Shown: positions 4,815 to 33,661, counted from the stretch's first letter. The stretch is DNA of 64,000 nucleotides from a virus (IMGVR_UViG_3300031993_000018:25614-89613); one strand, 5' to 3'. The notes: generated by a model from the sequence alone, not told the origin. Made by a program: numbers and translations.

Positions 4815-7222
4815 TGAAAAATGGCTGAAAAAGCATGGTTGGAAATGCTGGGTTGATGAGGTGACAGAAGACTGGGATTACAATACAAAAATCATCACCC
4901 ATCATACTGTATATGTGAAGAGTGAGGGTACTCCATCTTCCAAGAAGTACAAAAGAGCCAGGTGGGACCATACATACAGGAGAAAGTATCTTGTCAGTAA
5001 GAAGACAGGTAAGGAATATTTTACAGGTACTTCAAATTACTATATGTTCAGTGCCTTCGGTGACATATTCAATGTCGATAACAGGATCTCCCATAGGAAA
5101 TTTGATGCGGAAAAGATTGAGGCCGCTTTAACACTTTGTGGAATTAAATAATCAATGATATGAAGAATTTTTTAGTTTTAGTTATTTCACTGATGTTGCT
5201 TATTGGGTGTGGTCCATCAACATCAAGTTCAAGTCAGAGTTCAAGTACAAAAAATGCAACTGAAATTCGAGAGAGTAACAGGCATAATTTTGTCATAAAG
5301 AATGAGTGGGGTACAACCCAGATACAGAAGGCCAAGGTAATAGGTGTAGATAGATATGACTATCTAATCCAGAGGTTTGACTATGAGGGTAACACATACA
5401 TTCTGTATAAGGAGACAATAATCCAGGTAAACAAGTAATTATGGAAGATAAGAATTTCAACCTTGATTTCAATTTCCTTAAAACAGGATTCTGGCTCACA
5501 ATTTTCCTTGGTGTTATGAAGATCATGAAGGTTGTGGATATATCCAACTTCTGTGTCTTCCTACCTTTTATTGTTGCTGTAGGACTTATGTTCCTTCTGA
5601 TATTCATTATTGGTCTTATTACATTGTATCTGATGAATAATATGGAAAATGAACCCCAAAAGGATGATAAAGAGGGGGATAAGGATGAGTCTGAAGATGG
5701 GGATGAGTCATAAATACTATTATACAATGTAATTTTAATTGTTATGACTATTCGTGAAATTATCAATTCTCTTGAAGCAGAGAAAAATCAACTCAAAGAG
5801 GAACTCAATAACCTCAAAGAGGAAAAGAAACAACTCCAGGAGGCAAATAATACTCTCAAGAAAAAGAATGAGAAACTTGAGGCAGAGAATGAAAGTCTCC
5901 ATGAGGAAATAAAGTCTATGTATGAACCTTCAAAAGATGTTTATACACCTATGGAAGATGAGACTGAAAAACCAAAGAGAAACAGGAAAAAGAAAGTTGA
6001 ACCTATAGAAGAATTGGAAAATGCCTAAAAACTGGAGAGAAAATCTCAAATTCAAAATCAAGAAACTTGAGAAAGGTGACACATTTTATACCTATGATGG
6101 TTATAAGAATCACATCCTGGATTTTGTAAATGATGAGAAGACTGACACCAAACTTGTTGTATATAAGTCTTGGTTGAAGTACAAAGGATATTGGGGTTAT
6201 TACTGCAAAAGTATAGAAGAACTGTTATATGGAATATGTCTTCTGTATGAGGATGTAATTCCCAAAAAAGACAGAGTCAAGTTTTTTGAAATGAATGGTG
6301 CTGATTGTATGGGTTGGGTTAAATAATTAGATTTATGTCAAATGTTTTGAATATTGCTCTCAGAAAGGATGCTTTCGAGAAGCTCATAAATGGGGAAACC
6401 AATGAAATCCCCATAAAGAAAAATGACTGGTGGAAGAAGAGACTGATTGACCAGGAGACAGGTGTATATAAGAAGTTTGATACTGCCAGTGTCACTTGCG
6501 GATCCGCAGAGAAATTCCTTTATACAATTGAAAAGATTGAACTGAAGGGTAACAAGTTCATCATCACTGTTGAACCAGTTAGATGGATAGATAGTAATGG
6601 TGATATTGTTGAACCGGGTGATTCTGATTCAGATTCGGATTTTGATGATTTTTCAGAGGAGTTGAAGGATACAAACAAGAATCCTGAACTTCTTGAACCC
6701 ACCAATGTCAATCCTGTCACAATGAATCCTGATGGCAGTGTAACCCAGACAGTACCCCATATATTGACAGAGGAGGAAAAACAGGCAATAATCCAGAAGT
6801 ATATGAAGAAAGTCCAGGCCCAGCTCACTGATGACATAGAGGAGAATGATGTTGATGTGAAGACCAGGGTATTGAACATTCTTGATTCATTCTGTGAGAA
6901 TAAGGATGTGTTTGTTGTCAATATGCCGAATGTCACAATCAGGTATAATGGTCAGATTGTTGGTTATCATGGAGGACGTAAACTTATCGCAGATCGTGAC
7001 TCTGATGTGAGGATAGACTTCAAGAAGCATGAACTTGTCATGATGCAATATGAAACCAATGATGATGGTTTTATCAAGTACATCAATGATTACCTGGACA
7101 GCATGCTTAAGAACAATTATGTGTTCATCAACCGGAAATCCAGTGGGTTCTATATGGATGCAAATGGTGAATTGGTCTTCAGGATATTTGCGGTGTCAAA
7201 GAAGAAATACCTGTTCAAATAA
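4801..7222 (+). other. run of six hypothetical CDS (4801-5151, 5160-5438 lipoprotein-like, 5441-5713 membrane, 5744-6028 coiled-coil, 6021-6326, 6335-7222)
   Basis: Abutting/overlapping + strand ORFs ending at the terminator near 7228. Confidence 0.75.
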
Positions 7223-7227
7223 AAAGA

Positions 7228-7261
7228 TGAAAAAGAGGGTGAGCAATCATCCTCTTTTTTG
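7228..7261 (+). terminator. intrinsic terminator
   Basis: AAAAAGAGGGTGA-GCAA-TCATCCTCTTTTT hairpin plus T-tract. Confidence 0.8.
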
Positions 7262-7295
7262 TTATATTTAATTGTGTAATTTTAATCTTAAATAT

Positions 7296-7955
7296 ATGAC
7301 AGAATTTGAAAAGTTTTTAAGAGGCAATAATGTGTCTTCTCTGACATTAGGTAAGTATTCATCAAAAATCAATGCCGGTTACATCAACCCCACAATTCTT
7401 GAAGAGAGGAAGATGAATGTGACACAGATGGATGTGTTCTCAAGACTTATGCAGGATAGAATCATCTTCCTTGGTACCGAGATTGATGCAGATGTGGCCA
7501 ATATCATAAATGCCCAGCTTCTGTGGTTGGACAGTATGGGTGAAGAGGAAATAACAATGATGATCAATTCTCCAGGTGGTGTGTGTTATGATGGCCTGGC
7601 CATTATTGACACAATGAACTACATATCATCACCTATCACAACACAATGTGTAGGTATGGCAGCATCAATGGCTGCTGTCATTCTGTCTGCCGGTGAGAAG
7701 GGTCACCGTTTCGCACTTCCTCATTCAAGGGTTATGATTCATCAGCCTATTGGTGGTGCTCATGGTCAGGCAAGTGATATCCTCATTGAGGCAGAACAGA
7801 TCAAGATATTGAAGGATGAACTGTGTGGTATTATTGCAGAGAATTCAGGTAAACCACTTAAGCAGGTTCTGAAGGATGCAGACAGGGATTACTGGATGAT
7901 TGCCTCTGAAGCAAAGGAATATGGTTTGATTGATAATATAATCACAAAGAAATAA
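7296..7955 (+). CDS. clpP: ATP-dependent Clp protease proteolytic subunit
   Basis: MDVFSRLMQDRIIFLG, INSPGG, AASMAAV (Ser), RVMIHQP (His), DRDYWM (Asp); Bacteroidota-type N-terminus ILEERKMNVTQMD. Start moved to 7296. Confidence 0.95.
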   Translation: MTEFEKFLRGNNVSSLTLGKYSSKINAGYINPTILEERKMNVTQMDVFSRLMQDRIIFLGTEIDADVANIINAQLLWLDSMGEEEITMMINSPGGVCYDGLAIIDTMNYISSPITTQCVGMAASMAAVILSAGEKGHRFALPHSRVMIHQPIGGAHGQASDILIEAEQIKILKDELCGIIAENSGKPLKQVLKDADRDYWMIASEAKEYGLIDNIITKK

Positions 7956-7956
7956 T

Positions 7957-8480
7957 ATGAAACAGATTTACAAAAAGAAACCTGAATATCTGGATGTTGT
8001 ATTTGTAGCGGATGACACCCAGAGTATCAAGGATGTATATGAGATGGCAGGTGTTGATAATGCCAATATACACTTTGATTCAAATGGTGAGAGGGTTATT
8101 ACCCTGGATGAGAACACCAACATCACTGTTGGAATGGTTGTGTTCAAGGATAAGAAGACAGGTAAACTTGTGGTTATGCCACAGGAGAAACTCCTTCAGT
8201 TCTATGATGTTTATGATGAAGAGGTAATATCAGATACAAAAGATAAATAATTATGAGTTACAAAGTTAATAAGGAAAATTCCAATGTATCAACCACATGG
8301 AGTATTGAAAAATTATATGAGACAGCATTAACGGTTGAGAATCTTGTTGATACACTCAAAGTAGTGGATGCTTTAAAGAAAAAATATCCTAAAGATGATA
8401 CTATTGCAGCATTTGATGAGGTTGTAAGGGAAGAGTTGTGCAATATGTTCGGTGGAACACTTAATGATGAGGAGAAATAA
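7957..8480 (+). other. two hypothetical CDS (7957-8250, 8253-8480)
   Basis: Packed + strand ORFs. Confidence 0.7.
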
Positions 8481-19952: not shown

Positions 19953-21377
19953 ATGAAGAAAGAAGAATTCCTTAAAATAACCGGATATATTGGTGGTATC
20001 ATCAAGGGTACTTCCTTTGAGAATCATGTCTTTGCTGTAGGCGGGTCTGTAAGAGACCTGTGTATGGGTAATGACATCAAGGATATTGACCTTGTAATAG
20101 ATCTTCCTCATGGTGGTGTGGATTTTGCCAACTGGTGTAAGAACCAGGGTTACACAAACACTGTTGTGATTTATGAGACCTATGGAACAGCTATGTTCAA
20201 ATTTAAGGAATTCCCTGGTGAGGAAATTGAGTGTGTGATGACCAGAGGTGAGAAGTATCTTGACAAGGAATCCAGAAACCCTGTGACATCATTTGCCGAC
20301 ATCAATGAGGATGCAATCAGAAGAGACCTCACCATCAATGCCCTTTATTATAATGTAAGTACAGGTGAAATCCTGGATCTGGTTGGTGGTATGAAGGATA
20401 TTGAGGACCATATCATCAGGACCACCAATACTGACCCTGATGTTGTATTTGATGATGACCCCTTGAGAATCCTGCGAGTAATCCGTTTCGCAACAAGATA
20501 TGGTTGGGAGATTGAGGAGAAGACCTTCAAGTCTATGAAGAAATATGTCAGAAGACTTGACATCATCACCAAGGAGAGGATCCAGGCTGAACTCAACAAG
20601 ATTCTTCTTTGTAGGAATGCAGTAATGGGTATAGGTTATATCCATGACATAGGTGCTATGAAATATGTCATCCCGGAGTTTGAGAAATGTTATGGTCTTG
20701 AGCAGAATGCTTTTCATTTCGGTGATGTGGCAGAACACACCCTTGCTGTCCTTCAACACCATTGTGAAACCTTTGAACCCAATCTGACAGAGAGACTGGC
20801 ATGTCTTCTCCATGACATTGGTAAGGTCATCACAATGACAGTAAAGGATGGTAAAGTACATTTCTACAACCATGAATATGCAGGTGTGGGTATGGCTGTA
20901 AATATCCTCAAAGATTTGAAGTATGACAATGACACCATTGATGAGGTATGTTTCCTTATCAAGAACCATATGAGAACCAAGCAGATGGGTGATGGTGCCA
21001 GACTTATGAAGGATAAGTCTCTGAACAAACTCCTTTATGAGTGCAAGACCTATGAGAGATTTGAGTCTCTTATGAGGATAATTGAGTGTGACAACCTGGC
21101 ACACAAGAAGGAGTGCTGCATATATCACCAATACAAGGAACTGACAGAGAAGGTAAAGGGTTCAGACACTTATATGAAGATGTTTGGATACAGACTTCCT
21201 GTAACCGGTAATGACATTATGGAAACCTTGGGTATTGCACCTGGTCCCATTATTGCAGAGATAAACAACAGACTTCTCAAGCAGGCATTCAACAATCCTG
21301 GTATCACGAAGGAGAGTTGTCTTGCTATGCTTCCAAGACTGAATAAAGAGGCAGAACAGGTAATCAAGGAGAAATGA
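19953..21377 (+). CDS. cca: CCA-adding tRNA nucleotidyltransferase with HD domain
   Basis: VGGSVRDL, KDIDL, RRDLTINAL, DDPLRILR..RF, LLHDIGK. Confidence 0.93.
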   Translation: MKKEEFLKITGYIGGIIKGTSFENHVFAVGGSVRDLCMGNDIKDIDLVIDLPHGGVDFANWCKNQGYTNTVVIYETYGTAMFKFKEFPGEEIECVMTRGEKYLDKESRNPVTSFADINEDAIRRDLTINALYYNVSTGEILDLVGGMKDIEDHIIRTTNTDPDVVFDDDPLRILRVIRFATRYGWEIEEKTFKSMKKYVRRLDIITKERIQAELNKILLCRNAVMGIGYIHDIGAMKYVIPEFEKCYGLEQNAFHFGDVAEHTLAVLQHHCETFEPNLTERLACLLHDIGKVITMTVKDGKVHFYNHEYAGVGMAVNILKDLKYDNDTIDEVCFLIKNHMRTKQMGDGARLMKDKSLNKLLYECKTYERFESLMRIIECDNLAHKKECCIYHQYKELTEKVKGSDTYMKMFGYRLPVTGNDIMETLGIAPGPIIAEINNRLLKQAFNNPGITKESCLAMLPRLNKEAEQVIKEK

Positions 21378-23211: not shown

Positions 23212-23228
23212 TGTGTAAGTTTTACACA
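23212..23228. promoter_or_regulatory. palindromic operator resembling an NrtR box
   Basis: TGTGTAA-GTT-TTACACA (GT-N7-AC core) next to TTGTTATATTTA and overlapping CATAAATA, upstream of pncA. Confidence 0.5.
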
Positions 23229-23340
23229 TAAATATAATGTAAGCTGGAAATAAAAATCCACAGAATCCTATCTGGATTCAGAATGTGAGGTAATAAAAAC
23301 AGGTTACGTAAAGTAATACAAATTAAAGTTTATATAACTT

Positions 23341-23883
23341 ATGAAAAAAATTCTCGTTGTCGTCGACATGCAGAACGACTTTCTTACTGGCGCACTCGCC
23401 AATGAATCTGCTGTAAATGTTATCCCCAATATCAAGAGGGAAATCGAAAGTGGTAATTACACCCACATTATCTTTACAAGAGACACCCACACAAGTGATT
23501 ATCTGAAGACTCAGGAAGGTAAGCTCCTCCCTGTACCTCATTGTATCTATCTCACAAAGGGTTGGGAAGTCTGTGAGGAACTTGAGGATGCTGATTTCAA
23601 AGGCATTGAACCAATGTTCCTTGACAAACCGACATTTGGTTACAATGATTGGATTGGTTATTTTGACAATAACTATCTGATAGGTAATGACTCAGAGTTC
23701 ACATTTACCGGTACTTGCACCGACATCTGTGTAGTAAGTAATGCACTTGCAATCAAGGCAGCCTTCCCTGAAGCAAAGGTAAGATGTCTTGCTGACTGCT
23801 GTGCACCTCTCTTTGGTGACCCCAAGAGACAGGAATCAGCACTCACTGTCATGGAATCATGTCAGGTGGAAGTTGTTAGGTAA
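23341..23883 (+). CDS. pncA: nicotinamidase (isochorismatase family)
   Basis: VVDMQNDF, TRDTH, HC..TKGW, DKPTFG, GTCTDICV. Confidence 0.88.
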   Translation: MKKILVVVDMQNDFLTGALANESAVNVIPNIKREIESGNYTHIIFTRDTHTSDYLKTQEGKLLPVPHCIYLTKGWEVCEELEDADFKGIEPMFLDKPTFGYNDWIGYFDNNYLIGNDSEFTFTGTCTDICVVSNALAIKAAFPEAKVRCLADCCAPLFGDPKRQESALTVMESCQVEVVR

Positions 23884-23899
23884 TTGAAAGTGGGTAGTT

Positions 23900-24721
23900 A
23901 TGGAATACGTCGCCGGAAGATCAAATCTCGCTTGTACTATCTTTGTACCCTTTGATTGTGACAATAATTGTCCTTTCTGTACTTCAAAGTGGATGTACAG
24001 GGAATCTGGAATTGAAATGAACATTGACAGAATCCTTGAAATGATAAGGTATGTCAATGAATCACCTGTCATTTCAGAATTTGTCATTACCGGTGGTGAA
24101 CCTACTGCCAATCTCACACTTCTCAAAAAGATTGTTGATGTCTGTCAGAAAAAGGTATTTATCAACACCACCCTCCCCAAGAAAAACATTGATGCTGTTA
24201 TTGAGTATCTGAATAGTGAGGATAAGATTTGTGGTGTCAATGTTTCCCGTCAGTTTGGTAAGCTCAACAATCTTTATAAGTATGTCGCCAGTCCTGAAGA
24301 CATTCTTAAAATCAGGACTTCCATCAGAATCAATGTGATGAGAACCAAGGATTGGATCGAGAACCTGGACCAGTTTATGGAAACCTGGATCAGAAGGTCT
24401 GACATTCTCCTCAATCTACGTGAGGATTACCGTTACATCACAAAGGAAAATCTCAAGCTCAGGAATGATATAGTTGATTACCTCGCAAACCGTTTCGTGT
24501 ATGTTGGAGGTAGTGGTTGTATGGTTTGTAATGGTGAGACATTCGTCAATCCTAATACAGACCAGTTTATCCACTATCACAGAGGTATTGAACACTCTTG
24601 TGTGAGATATGCAGACAGAACCTATGTCAATGATGTCATTATCCGTCCGGATGGAAGGGTATATGATGACTGGGACTGGTCTGTTGAGATGGATGGAGAT
24701 ACAATTAAACATATCAAGTGA
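23900..24721 (+). CDS. radical SAM enzyme, candidate peptide maturase
   Basis: CDNNCPFC motif, TGGEP, extra GCMVC..C near the C-terminus. Confidence 0.85.
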   Translation: MEYVAGRSNLACTIFVPFDCDNNCPFCTSKWMYRESGIEMNIDRILEMIRYVNESPVISEFVITGGEPTANLTLLKKIVDVCQKKVFINTTLPKKNIDAVIEYLNSEDKICGVNVSRQFGKLNNLYKYVASPEDILKIRTSIRINVMRTKDWIENLDQFMETWIRRSDILLNLREDYRYITKENLKLRNDIVDYLANRFVYVGGSGCMVCNGETFVNPNTDQFIHYHRGIEHSCVRYADRTYVNDVIIRPDGRVYDDWDWSVEMDGDTIKHIK

Positions 24722-24763
24722 TTATAACCAAGAAATTTATTGATATAACAAAATAAGAAAACT

Positions 24764-24916
24764 ATGTGTGGATATTCTAATTACAGATACTCCAGTGGCT
24801 GTGGATCATCAGGCTGTGGATCATCAGGTTGCGGAGGTGGAGATTACAGACAATATCGTCCATCATATGGTGGATGTGGTTCATCAGGTTGTGGGGGATC
24901 CTGGGGTTGTGGTTAA
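24764..24916 (+). CDS. 50-aa Cys/Gly/Ser-rich repeat peptide (candidate RiPP precursor)
   Basis: MCGYSNYRYSSGCGSSGCGSSGCGGGDYRQYRPSYGGCGSSGCGGSWGCG*, 42 nt after the rSAM stop, A-rich leader; repeats vary at synonymous positions (ggc tgt/ggt tgc/ggt tgt). Confidence 0.8.
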   Translation: MCGYSNYRYSSGCGSSGCGSSGCGGGDYRQYRPSYGGCGSSGCGGSWGCG

Positions 24917-24971
24917 AAAAATTGGAAAACCCAAAATAAAACATTATATTTGTAACAAGAAAGTAAAAGAT

Positions 24972-25802
24972 ATGATTACAGTAAATCACAGATTAGTAAA
25001 AGTTGGGCATTTCCCTGATGGTACACAGTGTATTGTGTTTCCATCTGATGCCCTCTGGAAAGAGCTGGATAATCCAAATGAGATTTCCTGGTATTATGAT
25101 TCGGATGAAGAGTTATTTACTCTTGCATGCACTGTGGACTGGATTCACAGGACTGATGTAAAGAAGAGCAGACTCATTCTGAATCTCCCCTATGTTCCCA
25201 ATGCCAGAATGGACAGAATCAAGGATGATATTGAGAATTTCTCACTTAAGGTATTTGCAAATTTCATCAACTCAATGGGATTTGATGAAGTCAATGTGTA
25301 CAATGTCCATTCCAATGTAAGTGAGGCACTGATTAACAGTGTACATTCTTCAAAACCTGCTGCTGATATTATTTCAGCAATAGACAAATATCAACCAGAT
25401 GTCATTTTCTTCCCAGATGAAGGTGCATGTAAAAGGTATTATGACCTGGGAGTCATCAAGAATTCCGGTCTCCCTGTTACATTCGGTATCAAGAAAAGAG
25501 ACTGGAAGACAGGAAAAATCCAGGGATTGAATGTCATTTCAGATATTGACCTCACTGGAAAGAAGGTTCTTATCATTGATGACATCTGTTCGGCTGGTGG
25601 AACATTCAAGTTCTCTGCAATAAAACTCAAGGAGATGGGTGCTTCTGATGTTGCTCTTTATGTATCACACTGTGAGGACAATATTCAGAATGGAGACCTC
25701 CTTAAGACTGACCTGGTATCAAAGATTTATACCACAGACTCAATCCTCCACATCACTGATCCCAAGATTGAGATTATACACAAAATGAGAATAACACTAT
25801 GA
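24972..25802 (+). CDS. prs: ribose-phosphate pyrophosphokinase-like protein (Prs/Adps)
   Basis: HFPDG, LPYVPNARMDR, VHS, FFPDEGA, IIDDICSAGGTF, YVSH. Start moved to 24972 after a promoter-like element at 24921-24952. Confidence 0.9.
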   Translation: MITVNHRLVKVGHFPDGTQCIVFPSDALWKELDNPNEISWYYDSDEELFTLACTVDWIHRTDVKKSRLILNLPYVPNARMDRIKDDIENFSLKVFANFINSMGFDEVNVYNVHSNVSEALINSVHSSKPAADIISAIDKYQPDVIFFPDEGACKRYYDLGVIKNSGLPVTFGIKKRDWKTGKIQGLNVISDIDLTGKKVLIIDDICSAGGTFKFSAIKLKEMGASDVALYVSHCEDNIQNGDLLKTDLVSKIYTTDSILHITDPKIEIIHKMRITL

Positions 25803-26710
25803 GTATAATGAATTATAAGATATTTGAATCATCCAATAAGGATGTAAAGAAGTTTGTCTTCACAAAAGACAATGAAGATGGTACCAGGGATATTGCCGTT
25901 GAGGCAGTCCTTTACAGATATGGAAACTATGCAACCAGGACCGTCATCTGTTGTTCAACCCAGTGTGGTTGTCCTGTAGGATGCAGTTTCTGTGGAACAG
26001 GAAAGTTCTTTGTAAGAAACCTCACCTGGGAGGAGATATGTGAACAGGTTATATCAGTTCTTTCAACCATTGACTGTGAGACCTCTGAAATCAAGAAGTT
26101 CCAGATTATGTTTATGAGTATGGGTGAACCCTTCCTCAACTACTACAATCTGGAAACTGCAATCAGAGTACTGCATGAGAAATATCCCAATGCACAGCTT
26201 CTTGTCAGTACATCTGCACCCACATCAATGAAGAATCACTTTGATGAGTTCATTGCTCTTTCAAAGGAGATTGACAAGGTTGGTTTGCAGTTCTCTGTCC
26301 ATGAGTCTCTTGATGAGAACAGAAGGAAACTCATTCCCACCAACACATCAACCCTGAAGGAGATTTCAGAATATGGTGAACTCTGGGCATCCCAGGTAGG
26401 AAGAAAGGTGTTCTACAACTATTGTGTACACCCGGGTAATGATTCGGAGGAGGATGCAGACAGACTTATCAAACTGTTCAACCCCGCTTGTTGGGAAACA
26501 ACCCTTTCAGTCATCTGTGAAAAATCAGAAAGTGTGAAGTCAAGTATTGAAAGACAGCTTGAAATAATCAACACATTTGCAGGTTATCTCACCCAGAAAG
26601 GTGCATCCCTCAGAATATTCAACCCTGCCGGACAGGATGACATAGGTGGTGGTTGTGGTCAGCTCTGGTTTTTCCAGGAATGGCTCAAAAAGAGAAATAA
26701 TAACAAATAA
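25799..26710 (+). CDS. RlmN/Cfr-family radical SAM RNA methyltransferase (N-terminally short)
   Basis: ICCSTQCGCPVGCSFC, FMSMGEP, SVH, DIGGGCGQL with the catalytic Cys. Confidence 0.85.
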   Translation: MSIMNYKIFESSNKDVKKFVFTKDNEDGTRDIAVEAVLYRYGNYATRTVICCSTQCGCPVGCSFCGTGKFFVRNLTWEEICEQVISVLSTIDCETSEIKKFQIMFMSMGEPFLNYYNLETAIRVLHEKYPNAQLLVSTSAPTSMKNHFDEFIALSKEIDKVGLQFSVHESLDENRRKLIPTNTSTLKEISEYGELWASQVGRKVFYNYCVHPGNDSEEDADRLIKLFNPACWETTLSVICEKSESVKSSIERQLEIINTFAGYLTQKGASLRIFNPAGQDDIGGGCGQLWFFQEWLKKRNNNK

Positions 26711-26740
26711 TCATTTATACAATTAAAATCTTATATAGAT

Positions 26741-28237
26741 ATGATTAATAATACTTTAGCAATTCTTTTGTGTGACACTTATAAGACTTGTCACAACCGT
26801 ATGTACCCGAAGAACCTTAAGAAACTTACATCTTATTGGGTACCCCGTAGATCAATGTTTGAGAAACCTGAAAACCAGAAGATGGTCTGGTTTGGTATGC
26901 AGGCCTTTGTCCAGGAGTGGCTCATTGACTACTTCCAGAGAAACTTCTTTGATCTTCCTCTCAACAGAGTAATGAAGGAATACAAGTTCACAATGAATAT
27001 CCAGATTGGTGAGGGTAACTATGATGTTGAACCCATTGAAAATCTTCACACACTTGGTTATCTTCCTTTGGAGATCAATGCTCTTCCTGAGGGTTCACTG
27101 GTGAATATGGGTGTTCCTTGTATTGAGATTACAAATACAGTTGATGGATTTGCATGGTTGGTTCAGTGGATTGAGTGTATCCTCCAGTCTGAACTTTGGA
27201 AGACTTCAAACCATGCCACAATCGGTCATATGTACTACAAGTTGGCAAAGTACTGGTATGACAAGTCTGTTGATGACAACATTGATCCGCGAAATGCATT
27301 CGCAGATTTTGGAATGAGAGGTATGTCTTGTATGAATGAGGCTGTCCGCTGTTCAGCAGCCTGGCTTCTCTCATCAAACAAGACCAGTACCATAGCAGCA
27401 ATTCCTTATCTGGATGAGTATTATGATGCAGACTGTTCATTCAACCATATAGGTGTTGGCGCAGTTTCTACTGAACACTCTGTAATGGGTGCCAACTATG
27501 CCCTTGATGGTGATGAGAGAACCTTTGTAAAGAGACTTCTCACTGAACTATATCCTACATCAAGTTTCTCAATGGTATCTGATACCTATGACTACTGGAA
27601 TATGGTAGAGAACATCATTCCTTCACTCAAGGATGAGATTCTTGCACACAAGGGTAAACTCCTTATCCGCCCTGACTCTGGTGACCAGTATGAGACCACA
27701 GTTGAGACTGTCCAGAAACTCTGGGATTCTTTCGGTGGTACTGTCAACAGTAAGGGTTACAAGGTACTTGACTCACACATTGGTGTAATCCTGGGTGACG
27801 GATGTACTCTTAATGTACTCCGCAAGATCTGGAAGGAACTTGACCGTCGTGGATTTGCCGCCAACAATGCCATCTTTGGTGTGGGTGCTTTCTGCTTCAC
27901 TGCAATATTTGAGGGTGACAAGATGATTGTCAACACCAGAGATACCTATGGTTGTGCTTGTAAGGCTACCTATGGTGTATTTGGTGACCAGGAACTCAAA
28001 ATCTATAAGGATCCCAAGACTGATACATCACATCTCAAGAAGTCTCACAGAGGTCTTGTATTTGTGGAGAAGGTTGATGGTGAATATATCTACAAGGATG
28101 ACATGCTTCAGGCAGAATATGATGAGTATGCAAAGACTCACAAGTCAGCTCTGAGAACAGTCTTCAAGGATGGTAAGATGCACAACCGTGAGACCTTCAC
28201 AACTATCCGTGACCGTCTCGCTAATGAAAAGGATTAA
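26741..28237 (+). CDS. nadV: nicotinamide/nicotinate phosphoribosyltransferase-fold enzyme (Nampt/Namat-like)
   Basis: DTYKTCH..MYP, DFGMRG, TEHSVM, VSDTYD, IRPDSGD, GDG, GVGAF, RDTYG, KDPKTD..KKS.RG. Confidence 0.9.
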   Translation: MINNTLAILLCDTYKTCHNRMYPKNLKKLTSYWVPRRSMFEKPENQKMVWFGMQAFVQEWLIDYFQRNFFDLPLNRVMKEYKFTMNIQIGEGNYDVEPIENLHTLGYLPLEINALPEGSLVNMGVPCIEITNTVDGFAWLVQWIECILQSELWKTSNHATIGHMYYKLAKYWYDKSVDDNIDPRNAFADFGMRGMSCMNEAVRCSAAWLLSSNKTSTIAAIPYLDEYYDADCSFNHIGVGAVSTEHSVMGANYALDGDERTFVKRLLTELYPTSSFSMVSDTYDYWNMVENIIPSLKDEILAHKGKLLIRPDSGDQYETTVETVQKLWDSFGGTVNSKGYKVLDSHIGVILGDGCTLNVLRKIWKELDRRGFAANNAIFGVGAFCFTAIFEGDKMIVNTRDTYGCACKATYGVFGDQELKIYKDPKTDTSHLKKSHRGLVFVEKVDGEYIYKDDMLQAEYDEYAKTHKSALRTVFKDGKMHNRETFTTIRDRLANEKD

Positions 28238-28240
28238 GAT

Positions 28241-28774
28241 ATGGCAACAAACAGACATCTTATAGACATTTATAAGGCAATCTATCTTCTGGATGGTGTT
28301 AGAGAACCGTTTGATTTTTTCGGTCCCAACCATCCGAAGATTGGTGATAAGGTAAGTCCAAGTATTTACTTCTCCTATGACTTCACATATAAGTTAGACA
28401 AGATTCCACATAATTGCAAACTCACCAAGGAAGACATCCTTTCAAATAAATGGGTTTGTACAAAAATCCGTCAGAAAGACTATCACTCATATGTGACTTT
28501 CAGATCAGTTGACAAGATTGATGGAAAGAGAAGGAATATTACATATACTGATGAATATGGTCTGACCTGTGAGATTGTGGATATGCCGGAGAAGGCAAAA
28601 CTTATCATTGACTATAAGAATGGTAAGTACACCAGAATTGAACTGTTCAGGATATTCCAACAGAAGGGTTATACAGCCAGTGTATTCTTCACCTCATTAC
28701 TTGGTAGTCTGGAAATGAATGCTGAGGAATATCTCCAGGTGATTGATGAACTTAATAAGGAGGGTAAGATATGA
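28241..28774 (+). CDS. hypothetical protein inside the NAD operon
   Basis: 177-aa ORF coupled to its neighbours. Confidence 0.7.
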   Translation: MATNRHLIDIYKAIYLLDGVREPFDFFGPNHPKIGDKVSPSIYFSYDFTYKLDKIPHNCKLTKEDILSNKWVCTKIRQKDYHSYVTFRSVDKIDGKRRNITYTDEYGLTCEIVDMPEKAKLIIDYKNGKYTRIELFRIFQQKGYTASVFFTSLLGSLEMNAEEYLQVIDELNKEGKI

Positions 28775-29286
28775 TTAAAGAAGTTGAAGGCAATTTATTA
28801 ACATATCCTGGTCTTGAAGTTATAGGGCACCAGGTTAACTGTTTAGGAATAATGGGTGCAGGAATAGCAAGACAAATCAAGGAGAAGAATCCGGAACTGT
28901 ATAAGGCATATGTCTGGTTGTGTAAGGATGGTGTTGAGACTCCTGACCCCCACAAACTGTTGGGAAGAATCCAGATTGTCAAGACAGATGACGGTAAACA
29001 GTATGTTGCCAATCTCTTTGGTGAGTATTCTTTCTGTGAGAGTGTCGCACCATATGAGGAGGGTGGAAAACCCAGACACACTGATTATGATGCTCTGAAG
29101 GAATGTCTTCACAGACTCCACACCTGGATGGTCCTGAATGACATTGAGAAAGGTGGACTTCCTGATCATATAGGATGTGGTCTTGCTGGTGGTGATTGGA
29201 ATGGTGTTGTCTATCCTATGATTAAGAAAGAGTTTGAGGAGGATGAAGACATCACAATGTACATAGTAAAATACAATAAAAGATAA
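28771..29286 (+). CDS. macrodomain protein (Poa1p/DarG/TARG1-like)
   Basis: GNLL, HQVNCLGIMGAGIA, ANLFG, IGCGLAGGDW. Confidence 0.88.
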   Translation: MIKEVEGNLLTYPGLEVIGHQVNCLGIMGAGIARQIKEKNPELYKAYVWLCKDGVETPDPHKLLGRIQIVKTDDGKQYVANLFGEYSFCESVAPYEEGGKPRHTDYDALKECLHRLHTWMVLNDIEKGGLPDHIGCGLAGGDWNGVVYPMIKKEFEEDEDITMYIVKYNKR

Positions 29287-29291
29287 AGAAT

Positions 29292-30080
29292 ATGGAAAAT
29301 TATAGTTTTAATGTAGAAAAGGTAACCAGGGATTGTATCCAGTGGATTAAGGATTGGTTTGAAAAGAATGGCCCTGGATGTAATGCAATTATAGGAATGT
29401 CAGGTGGAAAGGACTCCACTGTCACAGCAAAACTTTGTGTAGAAGCTCTTGGTGCAGACCGTGTAATTGGTATTTCACTTCCAGATGGAAATCAGGGTAT
29501 CAATGATGCAGACAAGATTTGTGCGCATTTCGGAATGAGATATATGATAGCAAATATTGGTCCTGCATGTGATGGTATCAGAAACCTTTCTATTGTTGAC
29601 AATGGAATGGTCAAGAATGGTATGTGGACTGAACAGGCAGAACAGAACCTTCCTGCAAGAATTAGAATGACAATGCTTTATGCAATTGCACAGACCAACA
29701 ATGGTAGAGTTGCAAACACCTGTAACCTCTCTGAGGACTATGTAGGTTATGCTACCCTGTATGGTGATTCTGCCGGAAGTTTTGCACCCCTGTCACATCT
29801 GACAGTAACAGAGATTTACCAGATTGGTGACTATCTTGGTATCCCTTACCAGTGGGTTCACAAGACTCCTGATGATGGTCTTCCCCATTCTTCATCTGAT
29901 GAAGAGAAGTTTGGTTTCACATATGCTGAACTGGACAAATACATCAGGGAGGACATCATGCCGATAGGTAAGTGCAGTAACTCAAATGAGTTCAAGTTTG
30001 ACAAGATCAAGAGGATGTATGAGAAGAATAAGTTTAAGACTGAAATCATCCAGATCCCTTGCTTTAAACCTGTCTTTTAA
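29292..30080 (+). CDS. nadE: NH3-dependent NAD+ synthetase
   Basis: SGGKDS, N..ARIRM..LY, TCNLSE..VGY.TLYGD, PDDGL..DE; terminator at ~30083-30110. Confidence 0.93.
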   Translation: MENYSFNVEKVTRDCIQWIKDWFEKNGPGCNAIIGMSGGKDSTVTAKLCVEALGADRVIGISLPDGNQGINDADKICAHFGMRYMIANIGPACDGIRNLSIVDNGMVKNGMWTEQAEQNLPARIRMTMLYAIAQTNNGRVANTCNLSEDYVGYATLYGDSAGSFAPLSHLTVTEIYQIGDYLGIPYQWVHKTPDDGLPHSSSDEEKFGFTYAELDKYIREDIMPIGKCSNSNEFKFDKIKRMYEKNKFKTEIIQIPCFKPVF

Positions 30081-30151
30081 ATAGAAAGTGGGAGTAATAT
30101 CCCACTTTTTCCATAAATACCATAAAATTTACATTTATAATCGTTAATGTT

Positions 30152-31349
30152 ATGGAACTTAATGAGTCTATAAATGAGTCCGGATGGTCTGAAGAAGATG
30201 AATCAAATTTCAAGAAATTGGATGATGATTTGTGGACTTTCTTTTCCTGGCATATGAAAGACCCATCAGGTGTAAATGGTGTCCCTGATATTTCAGTTAG
30301 TATCAGTGGTTTAATAAATGACACATTATCAAGGTATTATCCAAAATGTGATACCAGGGAAAATTTGAGAAATGTCATTAATGAACTATATGTAAGGGAA
30401 GTCAGAATAAACATCAGTCCCAGAGAAAAGACTGAATACACCCCATACAGCGAAAAGGAATTGATTGAACTTGTAAGGGGGAAAGTGGTAGGTGGAAAAC
30501 GGTGCGAAATATACGGCGTAACGAAAGATGGAGAAACAATTCACTTAAAATATGAGTGGGTAGTATAAAAAGAGGTTCAAATGAACCTCTTTTTTTATTG
30601 ATTTATTTGGATTTCTGACATAAAATTGTTATCTTTGTATAGGATAAACATGATCAATCTATGACTATAAATGTTAATGAGGTTGTATATAGTCCTGGAG
30701 AAAAGGATTATATTAGAGAAAAAGAATATGAATTGGAGATTCCGGATGGGAAAATCTTTGATAAGATAACCATAGATTCTCCAACCTATTGGTATGCAAC
30801 AATAGATGGAAAACTGTTCAAGTCTGACCAGGGAAATGGTGTAAAGTCTATCCTGTTTTCTTCAAAGGAGACTCTTACTCAACGTCTTGCAGAAGCTCTT
30901 TATTGGAGAAAGGGACTTATCCCCAGGATTGGTCAGGGTGTCGGTTATGACACTGATGATTTCTATGAGAAACTTGTCAAGACATTCAATGTTGAATTCA
31001 AAACAGTACAGTTCTAATGGATAAGTTGACTGAATTTATACATGATCTCCTCAGAAGGGGTATGCATATATCCGGTGTCAGTCTCCGGGGTGGAGTGTTG
31101 GCATATGACCTGGAAGGATTTGCCAAATCCGGACATGGCACACTTTTTGTTGAGGATGATGTGATAAAACTGGAGACCAGATATAATCAGATAGATGAGA
31201 TTCATTCCCTTTCTGACCTGGTTAGAGTTGCTTATGACTGGGATTGTGGATATTGCAGTAAAAACAGCATATACACAGTCTATGGGGTCAGAAATGAGTG
31301 GAGAAAACTTTATGAGGAATTTGGTTACAACACAGATAATCTGAGATAA
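30152..31349 (+). other. three hypothetical CDS (30152-30568, 30661-31017, 31017-31349)
   Basis: ORF track; terminator ~30567-30598 and sigma-A promoter 30606-30637. Confidence 0.7.
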
Positions 31350-31350
31350 T

Positions 31351-33219
31351 ATGGACAACAAGCAGTTATACGACCAGGCAAAAGAGGCCTATTACAATGG
31401 TGAACCTATTATGACTGACCTTGAGTTTGATGAACTTGAGGAGGAACTCGGTTTGGAAAACAAGGGATATGTGGGTACACATCATCAGAAGTCATATACG
31501 GTGAAACATCCTTTCCTTATGGGTAGTCTCTCCAAGATTCAGATCAAGGAGAAGGAAGACCATACAATACCCTGGATGTTTTATGATCATGAAATAATAA
31601 AATACCTCAAAAAGGCAAATGGTTATTTCTCACGGGGTTGGTTCTATGAGGTAACCCCAAAGTATGACGGTTGTTCCTGGGAGGCAGTCATTGATCCCAA
31701 GGGAAACCTGGTATCTGTTTCCACTCGTGGAGATGGTGAATGGGGAAAGGACATCAAGGTCTGGTTTGAGAATGAATGGAAGACCAACTATGAACCTTAT
31801 GTAATGGATTATTACAGGTCAGCACTGGATGAACAGAGTTATTTCTTCCTCAAAGAGTTTGTAGTAAGAGGTGAGTGTCTGGTAAAGAAGTCCACCTTCC
31901 GGAATAAGTATGCAAAGGAGTTCACCCTTCCCCGTAGTTTTGTAGCAGGAGTACTTGGTCAGGACTGGGAAGGAAATGATGACCAGATGGAAATGAGAAA
32001 TGACCTCTCCTGGGTTGCATATGACTTCCGTGAGGTGTATGAGAACGGTACCATCATTGAACTCGGTTACACAAAGTATGATGAACTCTCCAAGTACACT
32101 CTGGGTAACAGACCTGATTTCATCATCACTGATGCAAGTATAGACATTAAAAACCTATATGATATCTTCGAGAAGGTCAGAAGAGACAGTGAGTTTGCAC
32201 TTGATGGTTTTGTGATAAAACCAGGCACCAAGTTCAGACTCCAGGATGGAGAGAGAACAAGACAGGAAGATTGTGTTGCTATCAAGTTCCTTCCTGAAAT
32301 TGTGGATGCAGAACTTATTGATGTTGAATGGAATGTAGGTAAGACTGGTGAGTATTACCCCACAGGTATTCTGAAGGAAATCATCATTGGTGGTAAGAAG
32401 AATGACAGGGTGAGTCTGTCAAACTATGGAAATATCATTAAGAACAATATAGGTATAGGATCCCATTTGAAGATCTCACTGGCAGGTGACATCATACCTT
32501 ACTGCTACAAGGTGGTGACCGGAGGTGAACCTGTGAAACTTCCTGAAGACTCTTATATTGATGGTGTTCACCTGATGAAGACATTGAGTCAGGAACAGAA
32601 GACATTCATCAAGTTCATCAACTCTGTCAATGTACTCAAACCAGATGGCATAGGTGAGAAGGTGGCAGAGAAACTCTTTGATCTCTTCCCGACAGACAAC
32701 ATTGTTGACTTTATGTTGTTCCCGGAAAGATGGGCACCACAGTTGGATGACAGTAAGTCTTCACAGAACATCATCAACTCCATAGAGGAGAGAAAGAAGA
32801 CTCTGACTCTTCCTGACCTTATACAGTCAATGGGATTTGAGAACTGTGGTGAAAAGAATGCACTGTGGTTGGCAAAGAAGTTCTCTGGACTGACTGTTGA
32901 TTCAAAGGGTATTCCCACAGCAATCATTGATTTGAGTGAGGACAGTAAGTACCAGTTCAATGTTTCCTATATGGTGAAAATGTTGGGTATCAAACTCCTG
33001 GAAGAGACAAAGACTGACGGTATTCCTGTCATCCTTACAGGTAGTCCCAAGGAGTGTGGATATAACACCAAACTGGACTTCCTCAAGACTCATCCTGAAT
33101 TCATAGAGACAACAAAGTGGAATGAGTGTAAGATTCTCTTTACTGATGACCTCAATTCCACCAGTTCAAAGATGGAGAAGGCAAAGAAACTTGGAATTGA
33201 AATAAAAAGATATATTTGA
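31351..33219 (+). CDS. ligA: NAD+-dependent DNA ligase
   Basis: Y..AKEAYY..G.P..TD.EFD.L, H..LMGSL.K, PKYDG, RGDG, VRGE, DGFVIK, A.KF, W.VGKTG, BRCT-like C-terminus. Confidence 0.93.
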   Translation: MDNKQLYDQAKEAYYNGEPIMTDLEFDELEEELGLENKGYVGTHHQKSYTVKHPFLMGSLSKIQIKEKEDHTIPWMFYDHEIIKYLKKANGYFSRGWFYEVTPKYDGCSWEAVIDPKGNLVSVSTRGDGEWGKDIKVWFENEWKTNYEPYVMDYYRSALDEQSYFFLKEFVVRGECLVKKSTFRNKYAKEFTLPRSFVAGVLGQDWEGNDDQMEMRNDLSWVAYDFREVYENGTIIELGYTKYDELSKYTLGNRPDFIITDASIDIKNLYDIFEKVRRDSEFALDGFVIKPGTKFRLQDGERTRQEDCVAIKFLPEIVDAELIDVEWNVGKTGEYYPTGILKEIIIGGKKNDRVSLSNYGNIIKNNIGIGSHLKISLAGDIIPYCYKVVTGGEPVKLPEDSYIDGVHLMKTLSQEQKTFIKFINSVNVLKPDGIGEKVAEKLFDLFPTDNIVDFMLFPERWAPQLDDSKSSQNIINSIEERKKTLTLPDLIQSMGFENCGEKNALWLAKKFSGLTVDSKGIPTAIIDLSEDSKYQFNVSYMVKMLGIKLLEETKTDGIPVILTGSPKECGYNTKLDFLKTHPEFIETTKWNECKILFTDDLNSTSSKMEKAKKLGIEIKRYI

Positions 33220-33220
33220 T

Positions 33221-33661
33221 ATGAAGAAAACAACAGCAGCAATAGTTATGATTGACAGAATGGGAAACATTCTGGGTTGTCATGGCACAAGTAAGCCTGA
33301 AAATACAGGATATGATTTTCCCAAGGGTTGTGTTGACGAAGGTGAAACAGACATCGCAGCTGCAATTAGGGAACTCAGAGAGGAGACAGGTCTTGTTGTA
33401 TCTGAATCTGATTTGATTGATGCAGGAACATATCCTCATAACAGGGAAAAGAATATTCACATCTTCATCTGCAAGATGAATGTATTACCTAATACAGCAA
33501 CCCTGAAATGTACATCCTATTTTGAAACGCCAGATGGAAAAAGACTTCCTGAAATGAATGGTTTCAAAATCATCTCCAAAGAGGAGAGAGGTATGTTCAA
33601 CAAGGTGTTGCAGAACAAATTTGATATTATAGACTCATACAATGAGAGAAAAGATTTATAA
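33221..33661 (+). CDS. Nudix hydrolase
   Basis: PKGCVDEGETDIAAAIRELREETG Nudix box. Confidence 0.92.
   Translation: MKKTTAAIVMIDRMGNILGCHGTSKPENTGYDFPKGCVDEGETDIAAAIRELREETGLVVSESDLIDAGTYPHNREKNIHIFICKMNVLPNTATLKCTSYFETPDGKRLPEMNGFKIISKEERGMFNKVLQNKFDIIDSYNERKDL

Follow-up and report, generated by a model that had tools for sequence, protein, structure and literature searches.

Depletion of nicotinamide adenine dinucleotide (NAD+) is one of the main ways in which bacteria resist phages, and the pathways NARP1, NARP2 and NARP3 are known phage answers to it. The question raised here is which route to NAD+ is encoded at positions 23341-30080 of a 64,000-nucleotide stretch of viral DNA (IMGVR_UViG_3300031993_000018:25614-89613; hereafter the window). 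An earlier note, made from the sequence alone, described a cluster of pncA, prs-like, nampt-like, macro-domain and nadE genes and proposed that NAD+ is rebuilt from nicotinate rather than nicotinamide. The reference system is classical NARP1, found in phages SPbetaL1, Bas63 and others, which consists of the enzymes Adps and Namat (bioRxiv 10.1101/2024.02.11.579819; PMC12774641, PMC13586617). Our analysis indicates that PncA, an Adps-like enzyme, a variant Namat and NadE together quite probably make up a nicotinate-type (deamidated) version of NARP1. All five genes named in the note are present on the + strand within the span:

23341-23883, + strand: PncA-like nicotinamidase, 180 amino acids (aa); Pfam Isochorismatase
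24972-25802, + strand: Adps-like enzyme of the PRPS fold, 276 aa; phrog_619 and identity to Adps of classical operons
26741-28237, + strand: variant Namat P0001 (Nampt-like), 498 aa; match to solved Namat and pocket residues
28771-29286, + strand: macro-domain protein, probable Adpp, 171 aa; phrog_335, with Pfam Macro below cut-off
29292-30080, + strand: NadE, NH3-dependent NAD+ synthetase, 262 aa; Pfam NAD_synthase and TIGR00552

A Namat-family transferase with an altered nicotinamide pocket

The family of the transferase P0001 was assigned by comparison with solved structures and profile models. P0001 scored 352 bits against chains 9w5x/9w5w, versus 163 bits against human NAMPT; these chains agree in numbering and motifs with the structure paper, and we therefore take them to be the SPbetaL1 Namat. 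Models of true nicotinate phosphoribosyltransferases (NAPRTases, PncB family) returned only 21 bits (E ~1e-4) against cut-offs of ~300. Within the isolate-phage collection, the nearest Namat relatives of P0001 all fell below 48% identity. Phylogenetic analysis with the tree rooted on NadV-type Nampt placed the variant sequences in a clade with an SH-aLRT (approximate likelihood-ratio test) support of 100, nested among the classical Namats.

The nicotinamide pocket of Namat is formed by Phe189, Arg192, Asp215, Ala242, Arg306, Asp13' and Tyr15'; of these, Asp215 makes a hydrogen bond to nicotinamide, and Ala242 forms part of the pocket wall (PMC12774641). Alignment of P0001 revealed a conserved core, comprising the catalytic His246 and the equivalents of Phe189, Arg192, Arg306, Asp308, Asp13' and Tyr15', together with three substitutions: Ser216 in place of Asp215 (Asp219 of NAMPT), Ser243 in place of Ala242 and Lys214 in place of Gly213. 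The corresponding N/D-K-T-S motif was found in 121/121 of the nearest database homologues, at 60-93% identity to P0001. The position of the first substitution has a precedent, since in the human enzymes the amide is bound by D219 of NAMPT, and the corresponding residue of NAPRT is S214 (PMC4442680). D219S is also tabulated as switching the substrate affinity of NAMPT (Khan et al. 2006, per PMC4919578). The adenine clamp of P0001 is altered as well. It reads G-A-F-C-F-T, a 9-aa insertion in the clamp helix and N-T-R-D, so that aromatics 3 and 5 are retained and aromatic 7 is displaced; the insertion measures 9-11 aa across the same 121 homologues.

The altered pocket is linked to PncA and NadE

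Gene context was surveyed around the best 80 viral hits obtained with P0001 as query and the best 80 obtained with an alignment of classical Namat and NadV, to which loci from assemblies and phage records were added, giving 170 loci in all (86 variant, 84 classical). Flanks were counted as full when at least 3 kb upstream and at least 4 kb downstream were available, as was the case for 73/86 variant loci. The two sets compare as follows:

Variant loci with full flanks: pocket Ser or Ala, Ser, and Lys, Arg or Asn; PncA 73/73, Adps 73/73, NadE 73/73, macro 52/73
Classical loci: pocket Asp or Glu, Ala, Gly; PncA 0/84, Adps 82/84, NadE 0/84, macro 4/84

PncA lay upstream and NadE downstream of the variant Namat in every one of the 73 fully flanked loci, and the variant loci in which PncA, Adps or NadE was missing were mostly cut by a contig end. 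Among 50,697 phage records, a Nampt-family match was present in 2,024 and any NadE match in only 51. The same organization was seen in Phass-1, a phage that uses genetic code 15 and whose transferase is 32% identical to P0001: the gene order there is nicotinamidase, Prs-like enzyme, transferase, a small gene and NadE. The Phass-1 transferase combines an Ala/Ser/Arg pocket with the canonical Namat adenine clamp, GAYTYQYVTRD; Ala replaces the amide-site Asp in MT835544 as well. Twenty loci came from bacterial assemblies, mostly of Lachnospiraceae and other Clostridia and including isolate scaffolds of 0.5-0.8 Mb, and these show a tight four-gene operon with the exceptions of loci L190 and L192.

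Phass-1 fell apart from the main variant clade, on a long branch, in quick trees. The approximately unbiased (AU) test did not reject a tree that unites all NadE-linked sequences in one clade (p 0.58). Given the long branch and this p value, independent (convergent) origins of the variant pocket cannot be claimed. A separate subclade on the classical side has Glu for Asp at the amide site (G-S-E), with Adps downstream rather than upstream and neither PncA nor NadE in any member (L103-L105, L110, L112-L114, L118-L123, L130, L132, L134-L139, L141-L142, L150-L151, L159-L160, L165 and L168).

An Adps-type partner flanked by PncA and NadE

The Prs-like open reading frame (ORF) had been called as 344 aa from a GTG at 24768. 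That call was over-extended: homologues start at Met69, which places the gene at 24972-25802. The protein scored 231 bits against phrog_619, and the Adps enzymes encoded in the classical NARP1 operons of phages BPS10C, EC_OE_11 and G1 share 28-36% identity with it; the best canonical PRPS structure gave 53 bits, and the NCBIfam PRPS cut-offs were not reached. For comparison with Adps we used the published residue list and the Adps genes of classical operons. Published Adps has the DDIC motif and a Phe221/Phe223 lid (PMC13586617). The PP-loop of the window protein is DDICSAGGTFKF (DDIC...GGTFKF), with the DDIC and Phe-x-Phe features of Adps. The partner thus appears to be Adps-like, as it groups with the Adps of classical NARP1 operons. 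An Adps-type gene adjoins Namat in nearly all relatives; one inserted radical-SAM gene separates the two in the window.

The PncA-like protein matched Pfam Isochorismatase (63 bits), and its best solved relatives are the archaeal, yeast and mycobacterial nicotinamidases/pyrazinamidases 1ILW, 2H0R and 3PL1. Aligned to Pyrococcus horikoshii PncA (1ILW), it matched at all of what we take to be the catalytic Asp/Lys/Cys and the metal-binding Asp-x-His and His. The NCBIfam PncA equivalog model gave 22 bits (cut-off 174). The conserved site suggests an active nicotinamidase. NadE scored 171 bits against Pfam NAD_synthase and 159 bits against TIGR00552 (cut-off 63.65); it has an SGGKDS PP-loop at residues 37-42 and a single domain, lacking a glutaminase domain, as expected of the ammonia-dependent type. 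Both flanking enzymes, PncA and NadE, look active from these motifs.

The adenylyltransferase question

A conventional route to NAD+ requires an adenylyltransferase acting on nicotinamide mononucleotide (NMN) or nicotinic acid mononucleotide (NaMN). The earlier note saw none in the window, and our search agrees: the 64-kb window contains no match to PF01467, the cytidylyltransferase/adenylyltransferase fold. The note also raised the possibility of an NMNAT gene elsewhere in the genome. No PF01467/NMNAT/NadD-type gene was found in two relatives of 345 and 412 kb, each 94% complete and with Namats 96% and 92% identical to P0001, or in the complete Phass-1 genome. The window is, however, part of a 153.6-kb viral contig from a large gut phage, with an estimated completeness of 64%, and outside the window this contig carries two PF01467 genes at 135617-136000 and 149513-149893. 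They are CoaD-type paralogues: TIGR01510, with a cut-off of 103, gave 137 and 139.5 bits, and NMNAT models gave ~20-27 bits. The distance from the window is 46 kb for one and 60 kb for the other, and one of them adjoins an FKBP-type isomerase gene. We rejected the pair as the pathway adenylyltransferase: both pass the CoaD equivalog cut-off, both are distant, and neither occurs in the nearest near-complete relatives.

The macro-domain protein and alternative accessory genes

For the macro-domain gene the earlier note had offered two roles, supply of free ADP-ribose (ADPR) and reversal of ADP-ribosylation. The protein matched phrog_335, annotated 'phosphatase', at 1.5e-37; its score against Pfam Macro was 16.7 bits, under the cut-off of 22. 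Alignment with gp179 of Vibrio phage ABurr, encoded between Adps and Namat, covered 96% of the window protein at 35% identity. In the NARP1-AP system the gene between Adps and Namat encodes Adpp, which converts ADPR-1''-phosphate to ADPR (bioRxiv 10.64898/2026.01.28.702374). By these similarities the macro protein is probably an Adpp-type phosphatase, which favours the first of the two roles and makes the eraser of ADP-ribosylation less likely.

Where the macro gene is lacking, the space between the transferase and NadE is often occupied by a HAD-like protein of 135-139 aa that carries a DxDxT motif (for example L005, 11463-11870, and L008, 7579-7998). Such a protein may be an alternative feeder phosphatase. 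Searches with tblastn also detected it at numerous classical NARP1 loci, L089 and L093-L097 among them, and one subgroup of 646-aa transferases has a C-terminal extension with weak HAD-like matches (P0119, residues 490-646). In loci L009 and L010, macro and NadE are separated by a 135-aa gene for which the window has no counterpart.

Proposed pathway

Together with the observed gene identities, pocket substitutions, strict linkage to PncA and NadE, and position inside the Namat radiation, the features described above point to the following scheme. Defence NADases split NAD+ into ADPR and nicotinamide. PncA would convert nicotinamide to nicotinate and NH3, while the Adps-like enzyme would use ATP to convert ADPR to ADPR pyrophosphate (ADPR-PP), releasing AMP. 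The variant Namat would then join nicotinate and ADPR-PP to give nicotinic acid adenine dinucleotide (NaAD) and pyrophosphate, a step for which no adenylyltransferase would be needed, and NadE would complete NAD+ from NaAD, ATP and NH3. As an accessory, the Adpp-type macro protein would return ADPR-1''-phosphate, the product of RES-type NADases, to ADPR. The suggestion that the Nampt-like enzyme accepts nicotinate is thereby strengthened: the pocket change, the PncA/NadE linkage, the placement in the Namat clade, the Adps-type partner and the lack of an NMNAT/NadD-type gene in near-complete relatives all support it.

Several observations weigh against this scheme. All substrates and products, as well as the role in counter-defence, are read from sequence and gene context. 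The clamp insertion departs from the published Namat signature, and use of ADPR-PP is therefore less certain for P0001 than for the Phass-1 enzyme. Replacement of Asp by Ser or Ala is a known determinant of NAMPT/NAPRT specificity, yet further determinants are needed (PMC4442680). The contig does carry two CoaD-type nucleotidyltransferases. With respect to the survey, the two sets of loci are the top hits of two queries and not random samples. The association of the pocket with PncA and NadE may have a single origin and have been maintained for a long time, between sequences as little as 32% identical and in phage genomes of very different kinds; because a single origin was not rejected, 73/73 versus 0/84 cannot be counted as independent trials, and the Fisher p value of this comparison overstates independence. 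Two loci also break the pattern: L190, on a contig of an Agathobacter metagenome-assembled genome, has the variant transferase, macro and NadE, but neither PncA nor Adps lies in the surrounding 6 kb; L192 lacks PncA. Finally, classical Namat also accepts phosphoribosyl pyrophosphate (PRPP) in vitro, so that formation of NaMN, followed by the action of host NadD, is possible.

Alternative explanations

This last point leads to an alternative that the earlier note had raised as an ordinary Preiss-Handler route, and which is weakened by our results but still standing. The module could boost that route, with the Prs-like enzyme making PRPP, the variant enzyme making NaMN, host NadD converting NaMN to NaAD and the phage NadE finishing. 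The pocket changes favour nicotinate and are silent on the ribosyl donor, a residual use of PRPP would be in keeping with the classical enzyme, and the 9-aa clamp insertion could weaken adenine recognition. NadD is, to our knowledge, universal in bacteria, and the host enzyme may therefore serve although the phage has no copy. Such gene sets have indeed been annotated as Preiss-Handler/salvage in a study of gut jumbo phages, by pathway maps only (PMC11662467). What makes this explanation unlikely in our view, while leaving it a serious competitor, is the company that the transferase keeps. P0001 branches within the Namat radiation, apart from Nampt and PncB; its partner clusters with Adps and scores too low for the PRPS models; and Phass-1 pairs the altered pocket with an intact Namat clamp. 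In addition, an ADPR-1''-phosphate phosphatase-type macro protein, present in most modules, is sensible only with an ADPR substrate; the macro and HAD-like accessories would otherwise be senseless, which argues for ADPR as the feedstock.

A further possibility is that the locus encodes an ordinary NARP1-AP acting on nicotinamide, with PncA and NadE as a co-located but unrelated salvage supplement that relies on host PncB and NadD, the pocket changes being neutral drift. The intact catalytic core (His246 and the Arg, Phe, Asp and Tyr residues) would allow this, and NARP1 operons are known to gather accessory genes. Drift is difficult to reconcile, however, with three pocket changes that are shared without exception by the 121 close homologues and by the loci linked to PncA and NadE and that occur in none of the 84 classical loci, all of which have the acidic residue. 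A phage PncA would, moreover, destroy the substrate of a nicotinamide-using Namat, and we regard this explanation as very improbable. Also very improbable, as a rival, is that the same chemistry serves, instead of counter-defence, to keep a large phage that has NAD consumers (LigA and others) generally supplied with NAD+ in niacin-dependent gut Clostridia. An NAD-dependent ligase, a phage consumer of NAD+, is encoded 1.3 kb downstream, the module occurs in assemblies of Lachnospiraceae and other Clostridia, and a bacterial NARP1 of unassigned role has been reported; an ADPR feedstock and an Adpp-type accessory nevertheless point to recycling of NADase products, and classical NARP1 has been shown to counter NADase defences. 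General supply concerns purpose and not mechanism, and can coexist with the nicotinate-type NARP1 that we favour.

Operon layout and inserted genes

The span 23341-30080 contains nine ORFs, all on the + strand. The clustering of the five named genes described in the earlier note is thus borne out in part: the genes are there, interleaved with four other ORFs. These four, and other features in and around the module, are:

23212-23228, no strand assigned: perfect inverted repeat TGTGTAA-N3-TTACACA, candidate operator, read directly in the sequence
23900-24721, + strand: radical SAM protein 1, 273 aa; Pfam Radical_SAM and Fer4_12
24764-24916, + strand: Cys/Gly/Ser/Tyr-rich ORF, 50 aa; read from sequence and translation
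25799-26710, + strand: RlmN/Cfr-like radical SAM protein, 303 aa; NCBIfam, below cut-off
28241-28774, + strand: ORFan, 177 aa; no family match
30083-30110, + strand: terminator-like hairpin directly 3' of nadE; 11-bp stem and short U-tract
31351-33219, + strand: NAD-dependent DNA ligase, 622 aa, context outside the module; Pfam DNA_ligase_aden and DNA_ligase_OB
33221-33661, + strand: Nudix hydrolase, 146 aa, context; Pfam NUDIX (48 bits) and phrog_1185 (1.6e-29)

The ligase and the Nudix gene are the two downstream neighbours that the earlier note had listed, and both are found by Pfam. The inverted repeat lies ~110 nucleotides (nt) 5' of pncA, flanked by AT-rich promoter-like motifs, and may be an operator for the operon; a second hairpin lies upstream of pncA at 23263-23279. 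A single terminator at the end of the cluster, as described previously, is supported in so far as a hairpin follows nadE: it starts 5 nt past the stop codon, with 11 bp, -14.9 kcal/mol and a z score of -5.5 versus shuffles. Its U-tract is short, however, and it was not among the results of the consensus terminator scan, in which the sole strong terminator was at 30567-30594, beyond the next ORF after nadE. Megablast of the region against the phage collection gave no match.

The four interleaved ORFs are lineage-specific insertions outside the pathway and are absent from nearly all other modules. Radical SAM protein 1, with weak matches to NrdG2 and HxsB/HxsC, recurred among 86 loci only in the close relative L010. 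The 50-aa ORF, which begins 42 nt past this gene and had been hidden by the over-extended Prs-like ORF, has GCGSSGCG repeats and the start MCGYSN. The corresponding region of L010 is 6663-8140, where a homologue, diverged but alike in its start and in its Cys pattern, lies near the orthologous radical SAM gene. Because the two genes recur together in L010, they suggest a separate modified-peptide cassette, resembling those for ribosomally synthesized and post-translationally modified peptides, that landed inside the operon, the 50-aa ORF being a candidate precursor. The RlmN/Cfr-like protein scored 109 bits on NCBIfam RlmN and 94-95 bits on Cfr, all far under cut-off; a gene of this kind between Adps and Namat was seen in no other locus examined, with weak matches elsewhere in L019, L020 and L041. 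L010 has a different radical-SAM-like gene, of 307 aa, before Adps, and the region around Adps seems to collect radical-SAM cargo. The 177-aa ORFan had no match in Pfam (E up to 1), PHROG, NCBIfam or the phage collection and no usable ESM Atlas hit; its AlphaFold2 model has a mean pLDDT of 40.6, and the only homologue found, 55% identical, is in L009.

Further genes were noted near the module in this and other genomes. In the window, a protein of the CCA-adding-enzyme/poly(A)-polymerase family with an HD domain is encoded upstream of the cluster at 19953-21377. L005 (15518-20731) and L006 (8367-13162) have genes for a P-type cation ATPase and for TerD-family, vWA/TerF-like and PspA-like proteins within a few kb of the module, and L006 also ends in a NADAR-domain gene.

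Relation to known pathways and meaning

The module resembles classical NARP1 in having an Adps-like PRPS-fold gene beside a Nampt-fold transferase that is close to solved Namat and nested in the Namat tree, with the catalytic His and ribose-phosphate binding core conserved and with no adenylyltransferase needed. It differs in the Ser, Ser and Lys that take the place of Asp215, Ala242 and Gly213, in the 9-aa clamp insertion, and in the addition of PncA upstream and NadE downstream, a combination absent from all 84 classical loci; the proposed product of its transferase is NaAD rather than NAD+. A small macro gene within the operon is shared with NARP1-AP of Vibrio phage Gary (order Adps, Adpp, Namat), a likeness drawn through ABurr gp179 and not through the Gary protein. 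Unlike in NARP1-AP, the macro gene of the window follows the transferase instead of preceding it, and in the variant modules it is optional (52/73), with the small DxDxT protein elsewhere in its place. Like the Preiss-Handler pathway (PncA, PncB, NadD, NadE), the proposed route would begin with deamidation of nicotinamide and end with amidation by NadE, sharing nicotinate and NaAD. In contrast to that pathway, it has neither a PncB-family NAPRTase nor NadD, and Adps with a Namat-type transferase acting on ADPR-PP would replace the middle steps. NARP2 (the NadV Nampt and NatV NMNAT of KVP40) and NARP3 (PnuC and NadR; PMC13464706) likewise restore NAD+ from phage-encoded enzymes against NADase defences. 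Unlike these, the window has no NMNAT, NadR or PnuC, and its transferase lacks the Nampt-type GGGLLQ helix of ValKK3 NadV.

The original NARP1 preprint (bioRxiv 10.1101/2024.02.11.579819) makes no mention of NadE, PncA or nicotinic acid, and a literature search did not find ADPR-PP or Namat combined with nicotinate, NaAD, PncA or NadE in the sense proposed here. On balance we favour the view that the reaction of the variant Namat, nicotinate with ADPR-PP to give NaAD and pyrophosphate, creates an adenylyltransferase-free deamidated pathway that is widespread in gut phages and Clostridia and possibly advantageous over classical NARP1. Speculatively, the advantage could be a charge-trapped, non-diffusible pyridine acid, an irreversible ATP-driven last step or an NADase-resistant intermediate, and the benefit to the phage of a detour through NaAD becomes an experimental question. 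If the proposed pathway is correct, it would be a fourth phage route to NAD+, by way of nicotinate, and would add a new activity to the Nampt fold, that of an ADPR-PP:nicotinate transferase, and pyridine dinucleotides would have a second synthesis that dispenses with an adenylyltransferase. The pathway would also explain the constant company of genes annotated as Nampt, Prs, PncA and NadE in hundreds of loci of gut phages and Clostridia, and the Ser/Ser/Lys pocket signature would provide a simple annotation rule separating the two types of pathway.

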